Assembly (NCBI GenBank): GCA_016204385.1
Contig: JACQKW010000006.1
Location: 1 to 36,125, forward strand
Source: Candidatus Liptonbacteria bacterium
Lineage (GTDB): Bacteria > Patescibacteriota > Minisyncoccia > UBA6257 > 2-01-FULL-56-20
Reading direction: 5' to 3'
Length of the DNA: 36,125 nt
Shown: positions 723 through 10,721 of the stretch, piece after piece
Numbering within the stretch: position 1 is the stretch's first letter
Layout of the letters: every line of letters begins with the position of its first letter
Program-made: the position numbers and the translations under genes
The notes under the pieces: generated by a model
The model's input: the letters and a program-made list of their open reading frames with translations, nothing else
Told to the model about the DNA's origin: nothing
The model's database searches: none

Positions 723-751
723 TTGCGTATCAAGGGCATATTTGCTATTAT
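723..751 (+). promoter_or_regulatory. Sigma-70 promoter upstream of the tRNA pair
   Basis: TTGCGT (723-728), 17-nt spacer, extended -10 TG-C-TATTAT (746-751). Confidence 0.6.
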
Positions 752-759
752 TACAAACA

Positions 760-789
760 ATGCAACTACAATCGTTTATTAGACAATAA
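760..789 (+). other. Candidate leader peptide MQLQSFIRQ
   Basis: ATG 8 nt after the -10 box; codons ATG CAA CTA CAA TCG TTT ATT AGA CAA TAA; the stop overlaps the terminator arm. Confidence 0.35.
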
Positions 790-834
790 ACCGCCAACAA
801 CAACCGCATAGCGCGGTCGTTTTGGCGGTTTTTT
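788..834 (+). terminator. Intrinsic terminator-like hairpin in the tRNA operon leader
   Basis: AAACCGCCAA (788-797) pairs with TTGGCGGTTT (822-831); inner CCGC/GCGG stem; followed by a T-run. Confidence 0.6.
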
Positions 835-840
835 ATTTCT

Positions 841-912
841 GCTGCGGTAGCTTAACGGCAGAGCATTCCTCTGATACGGGAAAGGCTGGGGGTTCGACTC
901 CTCCCCAAGGCA
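841..912 (+). tRNA. tRNA-Ile(GAT), atypical acceptor stem, no encoded CCA
   Basis: D arm GCTT/GAGC; anticodon stem TTCCT/GGGAA with loop CT-GAT-AC; T arm GGGGG-TTCGACT-CCTCC; acceptor GCTGCGG/CCAAGGC has two mismatches. Confidence 0.7.
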
Positions 913-915
913 CAC

Positions 916-988
916 GCCCTCGTAGCTCAATGGACAGAGCGGGACGCTTCTATCGTCAAGGTTGCAGGTTCAAATCTTGCCGAGGGTA
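916..988 (+). tRNA. tRNA-Arg(TCT), no encoded CCA
   Basis: Acceptor GCCCTCG/CGAGGGT; D loop with A20 (Arg identity element); loop CT-TCT-AT; T arm GCAGG-TTCAAAT-CTTGC. Confidence 0.9.
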
Positions 989-1009
989 TTTATTTGATAT
1001 AATGGGCTT

Positions 1010-1360
1010 ATGAACCGACGCGCAATAGTTTTTTGTAATTCTATCCTCGGTTTTCTTGTAGGATTAAATATCCTCGTTTTCACAGCACTTTTCAGCAGTG
1101 TCGACATGCCGATCATTCACTATTTTGGCGGCATAGTTCCGATGTTTAAATATTACCTCTTTATCTCAAATTTCGGCGGCGCAATCATAGTACACGCTCT
1201 TGGCACGCTGATTGTTATGACGGGTGTTCGTTTGCTGATAACTCGCAGAGAGGCAAGTAATCTGGGACTTACGTTGGTTGGCATGCCGATCTCTTTCCTT
1301 GTGGTATCCATTTTAGAGCACTGGGGCGTTATTCTTGCGGGTGCCCCTCTCGCTTCTTAA
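1010..1360 (+). CDS. Hypothetical membrane protein (3-4 TM)
   Basis: 116-aa hydrophobic ORF; TG-A-TATAAT 6 nt before the ATG. Confidence 0.65.
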   Translation: MNRRAIVFCNSILGFLVGLNILVFTALFSSVDMPIIHYFGGIVPMFKYYLFISNFGGAIIVHALGTLIVMTGVRLLITRREASNLGLTLVGMPISFLVVSILEHWGVILAGAPLAS

Positions 1361-9309: not shown

Positions 9310-10721
9310 TCTGGGCGAACTTCCTGCATTTTTATCAGCCGCCCACCCAGAAGCCCTACTGGATAAAACGCATCACCGATGAGGCGTACCGTCCGCTCGT
9401 GCGCGGACTAAAAAGCCGCCCGCACGCGAAACTTTCGCTGAACGTAAACGGCGTGCTTCTTGAGCAGTTTGAACGGTTCGATGCCCGTGACGTGATTGAT
9501 GACTTAGGCGCGCTCCTTCGGCGGGGACAGATCGAGCTTACCGGAAGCGCGAAGTATCATCCGCTTCTGCCGTTCCTCCCGAAAGAGGAGGCGGTGCGTC
9601 AGATAAAACTTCAGGAAGAGACGCTCAAAAAATTTTTTGGCGATGCATGGACCCGCCGCGGATTTTTTCCTCCCGAGATGGGTTTTGATATGAACGTCGC
9701 GCGGACGATTTCCGAACTCGGGTATGAATGGATTGTCGTAGACGAGCTTTCTCACCCCGGAGCAATGAAAAAAACCGCGCCGATCGACTACTCGAAGATC
9801 TATGCCGTCGAGGGGCTGGAGAATCTCAAAATTTTTTTCCGCGAGCGCTGGACAAGCTGGGTCATACTTTCGGGACAGGTGGGCACCGGCGCGCTTCTTC
9901 TCGCCGGTCTCGGGGACCGGCTCAAAAGGAACGAATATCTTTTAACGGCAATGGACGGGGAAACATTCGGACACCATCGCGCGGGCTTGGAGCAGCTTCT
10001 CTTTGAGATCTATGATTCGAAGATTCTCAAGAACGTTTTGATTTCGGACCTTTCCGAACTATTCAACGGGCGAGGGGCGGTGAACCCCGGGCCGTCAACC
10101 TGGGCGCTCATGGAAAAGGATTTGGAACGGAAGCGGCCATTTGCGCGGTGGCGGGACGAGGAAAACCCGATACATGCCATGCAGTGGCAGCTCACGGAGC
10201 TCGCGATTCAGACTGTCGCGGGCGCGCGTAAGGACGCGCGGGGATATGGCGAGGCGAGGAAAAAGCTTGACGAGGCGCTCCATTCGGATCAGTACTGGTG
10301 GGCATCCGCGCGGCCGTGGTGGAGCATCGAGATGATCGAGCGCGGCGCGAAGGAGCTTCACGATGCGGTGCATTCCGCGCCCGGCGTCTCAAGCAAAGCA
10401 ACACAAGGCGCGGACGAACTGTATAAATCGATACTCTTCACCGCATTCGACTGGCAGAGAGAAGGAGTCGTCGAAGCACTTGCGAGCACGGAGGACGAGG
10501 AGATACGCGAGCGCACGGACGCCGGCCTCCCCCGGCTTCCCAAGAAAGAGATAGACAAGATGGTTGCGAATCTGCGGAAGGAAATTTCGCTTTTGGTAAA
10601 GAAGGAAGAATACGAACGCGCGGCGCAGATTCGCGACCGGATCCGCGAACTCAAAAAATATGCGGCAGACGGCAAAGAGGCGCATTTTTCTGCGGAAGGC
10701 TCGCGTGCATGGAATCCGTAA
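9306..10721 (+). CDS. GH57 glycoside hydrolase (amylase/glucanotransferase type) with C-terminal UVR (UvrB/C) domain
   Basis: HFYQP, FFPPEMG (nucleophile Glu), MDGETFGHH (acid/base Asp); tail LRKEISLLVKKEEYERAAQIRDRIREL. Confidence 0.88.
   Translation: MIWANFLHFYQPPTQKPYWIKRITDEAYRPLVRGLKSRPHAKLSLNVNGVLLEQFERFDARDVIDDLGALLRRGQIELTGSAKYHPLLPFLPKEEAVRQIKLQEETLKKFFGDAWTRRGFFPPEMGFDMNVARTISELGYEWIVVDELSHPGAMKKTAPIDYSKIYAVEGLENLKIFFRERWTSWVILSGQVGTGALLLAGLGDRLKRNEYLLTAMDGETFGHHRAGLEQLLFEIYDSKILKNVLISDLSELFNGRGAVNPGPSTWALMEKDLERKRPFARWRDEENPIHAMQWQLTELAIQTVAGARKDARGYGEARKKLDEALHSDQYWWASARPWWSIEMIERGAKELHDAVHSAPGVSSKATQGADELYKSILFTAFDWQREGVVEALASTEDEEIRERTDAGLPRLPKKEIDKMVANLRKEISLLVKKEEYERAAQIRDRIRELKKYAADGKEAHFSAEGSRAWNP

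Follow-up and report, generated by a model that had tools for sequence, protein, structure and literature searches.

A candidate codon-specific attenuator in the leader of a tRNA-Ile-tRNA-Arg operon from a reduced-genome bacterium

How is a tRNA operon transcribed when a strong terminator-like hairpin stands between its promoter and its first gene, and why should a very short open reading frame (ORF) end inside that hairpin? The question is raised by a tRNA-Ile(GAT)-tRNA-Arg(TCT) operon and its leader in the window, by which we mean the whole 36,125-nucleotide (nt) stretch of Candidatus Liptonbacteria contig JACQKW010000006.1 analysed here. The window corresponds to contig C10 in a 605-kb genome (G000) that is roughly 80% complete, in a family with genomes of 0.5-1 Mb. 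The anatomy of the promoter, mini-ORF and terminator module, its conservation and its rarity are directly observed. Some form of regulated termination in the leader is, in our judgement, quite probable. With a little more than even confidence, we take this to be a codon-specific, ribosome-mediated attenuator, in which a ribosome waiting near the end of the mini-ORF, at codons read by the two downstream tRNAs, would block the terminator.

The elements of the locus are as follows.

709-719, + strand: G-rich motif GGAGGGTGGGG, just 5' of the -35, a candidate UP-like element or factor site.
723-728, + strand: -35 hexamer TTGCGT, read from the sequence, with a 17-nt spacer to the -10.
743-751, + strand: extended -10 TGcTATTAT, read from the sequence.
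760-789, + strand: mini-ORF ATG CAA CTA CAA TCG TTT ATT AGA CAA TAA (MQLQSFIRQ*), 9 sense codons, near-leaderless.
778-783, + strand: proposed regulatory codons ATT (778-780) and AGA (781-783), read by tRNA-Ile GAU and tRNA-Arg UCU.
788-831, + strand: terminator hairpin of 18 pairs, with stems 788-797/822-831, 799-801/819-821 and 803-807/813-817 and loop 808-812.
829-838, + strand: T-tract TTTTTTATTT of the intrinsic terminator; T-run 829-834, the first three T pairing with AAA 788-790.
841-913, + strand: tRNA-Ile(GAT), first gene of the operon (ARAGORN; Rfam 52.4 bits).
916-988, + strand: tRNA-Arg(TCT), second gene of the operon (ARAGORN; Rfam 60.8 bits).

An earlier, sequence-only reading of this DNA had placed the promoter, ORF, ATT/AGA codons, hairpin and tRNAs, and every one of its coordinates is correct in the sequence. 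Simple scans overlook two of these signals, the promoter because its -35 matches consensus at 3 of 6 bases and the terminator because its stem has a bulge. The ATG lies 8 nt past the -10 and opens the only ATG ORF of the leader; no Shine-Dalgarno sequence precedes it. The terminator stem opens at the second base of the mini-ORF stop codon. Its folding energy is -25.5 kcal/mol (z = -4.9), a value equalled by 0 of 200 shuffles.

The T-run ends 6 nt before tRNA-Ile, and tRNA-Arg begins 2 nt after tRNA-Ile. A hidden promoter between the terminator and the tRNA was considered and rejected, as 6 nt are available and no -10-like hexamer occurs in this interval, either in the window or in the homologous leaders L035 and L032 introduced below. 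Because this leaves no room for a promoter, the tRNAs would be made only by polymerases that pass the hairpin. What they pass is not a T-box or another known RNA family, which were rejected on the lack of any Rfam match in the leader (window at E <= 10; L032 at gathering score).

The tRNA-Ile(GAT) gene in the window is the sole copy found in the 80%-complete genome, and the related genome G036 yielded no second close match to tRNA-Ile. As a separate observation, the window tRNA-Ile (52.4 bits) carries two adjacent non-standard acceptor-stem pairs, G4.A69 and C5.A68. The acceptor stem is perfect in its homologues from L035, L032 and G036, of which the L032 gene scores 68 bits. The odd stem may reflect genuine divergence or an error in the assembly.

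Homologues were searched for with a 29-nt pattern taken from the anticodon arm of tRNA-Ile, which returned one contig of a metagenome-assembled genome and four metagenome contigs. Three complete leaders are thereby available for comparison, namely the window, L035 and the L032 lineage (L032, L033 and L034, three near-identical contigs from different samples), along with one further leader that is cut (G036). In L035 (Ga0209515_10001537), TTGACA-16-TATACT is followed after 10 nt by ATG AAA TAC TTT AGC ATT AGA TAA (MKYFSIR*), by the hairpin AACCGCCAAAAC...GTTTTGGCGGTT, by TTTTGTTTC and by tRNA-Ile-tRNA-Arg. The L032 lineage has TTGCAC-16-TGcTATTAT, 9 nt and ATG CAA CGC TTC AGA ATT ATT TAG (MQRFRII*), then a hairpin AGCCATTCAGAAGACCGCA...TGCGGCTCTTCTGGGTGGCT that differs in sequence, then TTTTGATTT and tRNA-Ile-tRNA-Arg. 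For G036 (CAYHEU010000104.1), the contig end falls inside the hairpin; the 3' arm, T-run and spacing are kept. Its operon reads Ile-Phe(GAA)-Arg, and all complete homologues carry tRNA-Ile-tRNA-Arg.

All three complete leaders keep the promoter, an ATG 8-10 nt past the -10 and one in-frame ORF of 7-9 sense codons, and in all three the stem opens with the second base of the stop codon. At this overlap, the change from TAA to TAG in L032 goes with a change from U to C in the 3' arm. ORF lengths differ by multiples of three, so that the frame is preserved despite indels. The hairpins are GC-rich and range from -25 to -33 kcal/mol (z = -4.9, -4.8 and -6.5). When the first 12 pairs of the L035 and L032 hairpins are compared, five two-sided and two one-sided changes are found and no pair is broken. 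The T-run measures 6 nt in the window, L035 and G036 and 5 nt in L032, with 5-6 nt from there to the tRNA. On the other hand, ORF length, the first codons, the order of the last codons and the outer stem sequence are free to vary. All four lineages share the inner stem sequence ACCGCA...GCGG, with one unpaired base after it, and the hairpin 3' arm is about 88% identical between the window and L035.

Thus, conservation across related leaders, the check that the sequence-only reading had proposed for itself, bears out the mini-ORF, the 3' Ile and Arg(AGA) codons, the terminator and the overlap of stop and stem in two independent metagenome lineages, but not the competing hairpin that it had also described. 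Upstream of the promoter, L032 (TAGAGGGTGAAG) and L035 (AAGAGGGGGGAT) share with the window a G-rich motif, AGAGGG(T/G)G, at an equivalent position 4-7 nt 5' of the -35, and the sequence flanking it is unalignable among the three lineages. The motif may bind a factor or act as an UP-like element.

The genes flanking the operon are non-syntenic across the three contexts. Because they differ in each of them, the conserved unit is the module itself. Genes for IS200/IS605-like (Y1) transposases lie within about 1 kb 3' of the operon in L035 (10724-11407) and L034 (33-464), and the operon and its leader may be mobile as one unit. The tRNA spacers are always 2 nt, both in the Ile-Phe-Arg operon of G036 (L002 43-266) and in the Ile-Arg operons elsewhere, so one whole tRNA was gained or lost precisely. 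The tRNA-Arg(TCT) of L032 (294-366, minus strand) has the anticodon loop CCUCUAC, in which, by the Rfam alignment, C stands at position 33 in place of the near-universal U.

Which codons lie at the end of the mini-ORF, and how far would a ribosome waiting on them reach? We set the leading edge of the ribosome 11 nt downstream of the first base in the A site. This setting is our own assumption and its source is the classical toeprint at +15/+16. With it, the last three sense codons are exactly the positions at which a waiting ribosome enters the 5' arm of the terminator, by 2, 5 and 8 nt.

Window: ATT (2 nt), AGA (5 nt), CAA (8 nt).
L035: AGC (2 nt), ATT (5 nt), AGA (8 nt).
L032: AGA (2 nt), ATT (5 nt), ATT (8 nt).

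Codons cognate to the downstream tRNAs are therefore present in this zone in every leader. ATT or AGA fills 7 of its 9 positions over the three leaders, as against 0 of 11 earlier sense codons (hypergeometric p = 4.6e-4 by our own arithmetic, for sequences that are phylogenetically non-independent). The Ile codons of the three leaders are ATT in 4 of 4 cases and never ATA. CGC of L032, an Arg codon that the UCU anticodon does not read, sits outside the occlusion zone. No Arg codon is used less in the genome than AGA, which occurs 6.4 times per 1000 codons and accounts for about 9% of Arg codons. L032 is the cleanest independent replicate, its codon order and hairpin having been rebuilt, the window is the discovery case and L035, which has ATTAGA in common with it, is only partly independent.

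The sequence-only reading had allowed that these features might co-occur by chance in a short AT-rich ORF. In composition-preserving shuffles, we counted ORFs of at least 6 codons that end at the hairpin and have both an Ile codon (ATY) and AGA among the last three codons. The full pattern arose at frequencies of 1.2e-4, 4.9e-4 and 2.1e-4 per leader, the first being that of the window, and at 0.006, 0.019 and 0.009 when an ORF was given. Among real hairpins of the genome, ATY and AGA occur just 5', in any frame, of 3 of 581 other terminator-like hairpins (0.5%), none of which has the layout of promoter, mini-ORF and stop overlap. A -10 followed 5-11 nt later by an ATG, with an ORF of 4-30 codons whose stop lies at the stem base, is found at 1 of 582 terminator-like hairpins. 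These figures, the shuffle frequency for the window and the count over genomic hairpins, speak against chance.

The arrangement is also rare among tRNA genes. Within the genome, which has 27 of them, a strong terminator-like hairpin lies directly 5' of this operon only, and the other 25 are without one. These either have a promoter 10-20 nt 5' or a terminator distant enough to leave room for a promoter. Among 131 tRNAs in relatives' loci, a directly upstream terminator is confined to homologues of this operon, with about 124 others lacking it.

Searches for further copies of the module returned none in the window genome. The junction pattern, a T-run plus the start of tRNA-Ile, occurred in the window's own genome only when 400 genomes of the class were scanned. 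Elsewhere in the family there are Val(GAC)-Ile(GAT) operons and an Arg(TCT) gene divergent from Pro(TGG), both without the leader. From these relatives and the scan of the class, it follows that the module is an innovation of a narrow clade. A pattern scan of genome contigs returned G036 only, and viral contigs and a phage blastn search returned nothing. A looser pattern, T6 followed by a tRNA start, was unspecific in 400 genomes of the order, where controls matched about equally, and none of the 30 loci it returned has a terminator and tRNA module. Spurious ORFs translated across the tRNA operon gave no matches, and the downstream 116-amino-acid protein gave just one Logan contig, from the same organism and starting inside tRNA-Arg. 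The missing 5' half of the G036 leader is on no other contig of that genome, and the neighbouring protein of G036 was found only on the same 1.6-kb contig.

Other tRNA loci of the genome and its relatives showed peculiarities of their own. Several tRNA genes of G000 outside the window (C7:53465-53540, C13:13142-13213 and C8:10952-11023) lie between two stretches that look like a second tRNA split into its 5' and 3' half. An example is tRNA-Glu in G000, with GGCGCATTCGTCTAGTGGCTAGGA... on its 5' side and ...GGGTTCGATTCCCGTATGCG on its 3' side, which resembles a tRNA nested within a tRNA. The motif GGT(Y)CGCTCGTTGAAAATAAA stands 10-40 nt 5' of different tRNA genes in three genomes, in G000 5' of C13 position 13142 and in L046 and L049 5' of tRNA-Ile(GAT). 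It might mark where an intron or mobile element ends, or belong to a conserved leader.

From the layout we infer a course of events that covers mini-ORF translation, the point where transcription starts, its termination at the hairpin and the way in which regulation would run. Transcription would start 0-4 nt before the AUG and yield a near-leaderless transcript, as for many genes of the genome. The mini-ORF of 7-9 codons would then be translated while the polymerase transcribes the terminator, whose 5' arm begins inside the stop codon. On reaching the last three sense codons, which are almost wholly ATT and AGA, the ribosome would need the very tRNAs encoded downstream. Two outcomes can be pictured. 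First, when Ile-tRNA(GAU) or Arg-tRNA(UCU) is scarce, the ribosome would wait with the codon in its A site, its leading edge 2-8 nt into the stem, so that the hairpin could not close against the U-tract and transcription would read through into the tRNAs. Second, when decoding is fast, translation would terminate and the ribosome would be released, the hairpin would form and transcription would stop at about 832-836. The cell would thus probably make more of both tRNAs when ribosomes wait for them.

No antiterminator takes part in this scheme. The terminator would be occluded directly, as in pyrE and pyrBI, with the addition of 'hungry' cognate codons as in trpL and hisL. The sequence-only reading had described a competing 7-bp hairpin, GTTTATT/AATAAAC (774-780/785-791). 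This hairpin is present where it was reported, but it is weak and non-significant (-3.1 kcal/mol, z = -1.5, matched by 20 of 200 shuffles) and has no counterpart in L035. For L035 the best alternative hairpin comes to 0 kcal/mol and for L032 to -6.0 kcal/mol (z = -1.5); none of the three is significant, and they are not homologous. A switch between alternative hairpins of the trp/his type was accordingly rejected, as no conserved antiterminator exclusive with the terminator exists. For the same reason, direct occlusion by the ribosome is the best-supported mechanism. Of the earlier attenuator proposal, what stands is that a ribosome stalled at ATT/AGA would cover the terminator arm, and what falls is the competing hairpin. 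Arrest by the nascent peptide was rejected as well; RFR in the L032 peptide resembles the macrolide '+x+' motif but is unconserved, and the peptides have 7-9 residues.

Would such an ORF be translated? Leaderless expression is common in this lineage. The start codons of ORFs of at least 80 amino acids peak 6-7 nt past TGnTAWWMT, where 22 of the 34 start codons so spaced open such an ORF, and extended -10 elements of this type precede leaderless genes across the genome. At window 995-1012, the gene 3' of the operon has TGATATAAT, 6 nt and then ATG at 1010. With a start 6-8 nt past an extended -10, the gene after the operon should therefore be expressed from a leaderless mRNA. The genes directly 3' of the operon in G036 (at L002 ~307-321) and L035 (at ~9773-9794) show the same arrangement.

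Several points weigh against the codon-specific attenuator. The complete leaders number only three and are phylogenetically related, and ATTAGA, common to the window and L035, is possibly shared by descent. The mini-ORF ATG lies 8-10 nt past the -10 in the three leaders, and the leaderless mode here is 6-7 nt. A 5' untranslated region of 1-4 nt is thus likely, which without a Shine-Dalgarno sequence may initiate poorly. Not every zone codon is cognate, as the 8-nt position of the window holds CAA and the 2-nt position of L035 holds AGC. With ATT in its A site, a ribosome on the window leader would enter the stem by just 2 nt, and both of these pairs are A:U. One Phe codon stands just before the zone in 3 of 3 leaders, and tRNA-Phe is encoded in the truncated G036 operon only. 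Weak pairing is also possible between the A-rich end of the ORF and the U-rich spacer 3' of the terminator, which would give a partly non-coding reason for A/U-rich triplets there. Finally, a ribosome paused at the stop codon also covers the stem, by 11 nt. The discrimination between stalled and unstalled ribosomes would therefore have to be kinetic and to need polymerase pausing or fast release.

Could the hairpin work with the mini-ORF left untranslated? It might be a factor-dependent terminator, recognised by a NusA-like protein, an RNase or another RNA-binding factor, or a constitutive, leaky partial terminator, or else a hairpin for processing or stability. The inner stem sequence kept in four lineages and the 3' arm that is about 88% identical between the window and L035 fit this idea, as does an ATG that is off the optimal leaderless spacing. 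Naville & Gautheret (PMC2965389) take the conservation of a terminator stem that lacks an antiterminator, with the rimP leader as an example, as a sign of control by a protein, and the present hairpin can be compared with that case. However, the ATG, the frame kept across indels, the stop-stem overlap with its compensating change and the concentration of cognate codons are left unexplained, and so is the freedom of the outer stem to change in L032. We consider this account unlikely.

Somewhat less likely still is an attenuator of the pyrE/pyrBI type that couples to translation in general, so that tRNA output would track overall translation capacity or ribosome availability and the codons would be incidental A/U-rich triplets. 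It shares with the codon-specific attenuator an ORF that ends in the base of the terminator and the absence of an antiterminator. A ribosome at the stop codon would cover the whole outer 5' arm, as such coupling asks, and the leader is 72-81% A+T before the hairpin. The codons speak against it. ATY together with AGA is expected in 0.6-1.9% of shuffled ORFs and 0.5% of real terminators but was seen in every leader, and the cognate codons are confined to the occlusion zone in the 7/9 versus 0/11 split given above, with ATA never used.

An independent small transcript, that is, a small RNA or micro-peptide gene ahead of tRNAs that are reached by residual read-through, with a coincidental codon match, is improbable: promoter, ORF and terminator do form a complete unit of about 75-80 nt, and published work on rnTrpL/peTrpL in Sinorhizobium describes attenuator RNAs that act in trans, but the peptides have just 7-9 residues and unconserved sequence, the unit is always fused 5-6 nt 5' of the same tRNA pair in three unrelated contexts, and it has neither other genomic copies nor an Rfam match.

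The codon-specific attenuator can now be set beside known systems. The trpL, hisL, pheL, leuL, thrL, ilvL and pheM leaders of amino-acid operons and pheST likewise have a promoter-proximal short ORF, cognate codons and an intrinsic terminator. Two regulatory codons suffice in trpL. These classical attenuators use 1:2, 2:3 and 3:4 hairpins and a Shine-Dalgarno start, whereas the present leader has neither, would be read leaderless and has an ORF of 7-9 codons. They also differ in target, since the regulated genes here are tRNAs, so that tRNA supply would be sensed and not only amino-acid supply.

Escherichia coli pyrE (rph-pyrE) and pyrBI are alike in that a ribosome at or in the terminator blocks the hairpin and no antiterminator is needed. 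Unlike the present case, they sense UTP through polymerase pausing at U-runs, have no cognate codons and serve pyrimidine biosynthesis; no U-runs occur in the window mini-ORF. In tnaC-tnaA, too, an adjacent termination signal is masked by a ribosome that has halted at the 3' end of the short leader ORF. There, free Trp arrests the nascent peptide and Rho loading is blocked, whereas here the peptide is too short and variable and the terminator is intrinsic. T-box riboswitches resemble the proposed attenuator in coupling the status of a specific tRNA to antitermination ahead of genes of the same pathway. They bind uncharged tRNA through a leader of about 200 nt with a specifier loop and a T-box bulge, and the leader here is only about 80 nt. 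T-boxes have been described for genes of aminoacyl-tRNA synthetases, biosynthesis and transporters, and we know of none that controls tRNA genes.

Bacterial tRNA genes are generally regarded as controlled at their promoters (growth rate, stringent response), by processing and by turnover. The argument that this lineage has no stringent response and so needs other control was rejected, as RelA/SpoT is present in 11 of 13 relatives and absent only from G038 and the 80%-complete G000. To our knowledge, no mechanism has been known that measures the supply of one tRNA and adjusts the transcription of that tRNA gene. Full-text literature searches found no published description of leader-peptide attenuation of tRNA genes, and a genome-wide attenuator survey does not list tRNA genes among its targets (PMC2965389). 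The leader would accordingly represent a known type of mechanism, leader-peptide attenuation, with a new class of target, tRNA genes in a cellular genome.

We hold it an evenly balanced prospect that this is a cellular tRNA operon controlling itself, a closed loop that regulates the supply of individual tRNA species in a reduced-genome bacterium of the candidate phyla radiation (CPR). If so, it would be the simplest possible sensor, in which the ribosome reads a codon and the outcome sets the transcription of that codon's decoder. Leader-peptide attenuation, known for enzymes and synthetases, would then reach the tRNAs themselves. The promoter, mini-ORF and terminator would form a compact part of about 110 nt that can be tested in cell-free systems with defined tRNA pools. 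It would also mean regulatory sophistication in uncultivated CPR bacteria with minimal genomes.

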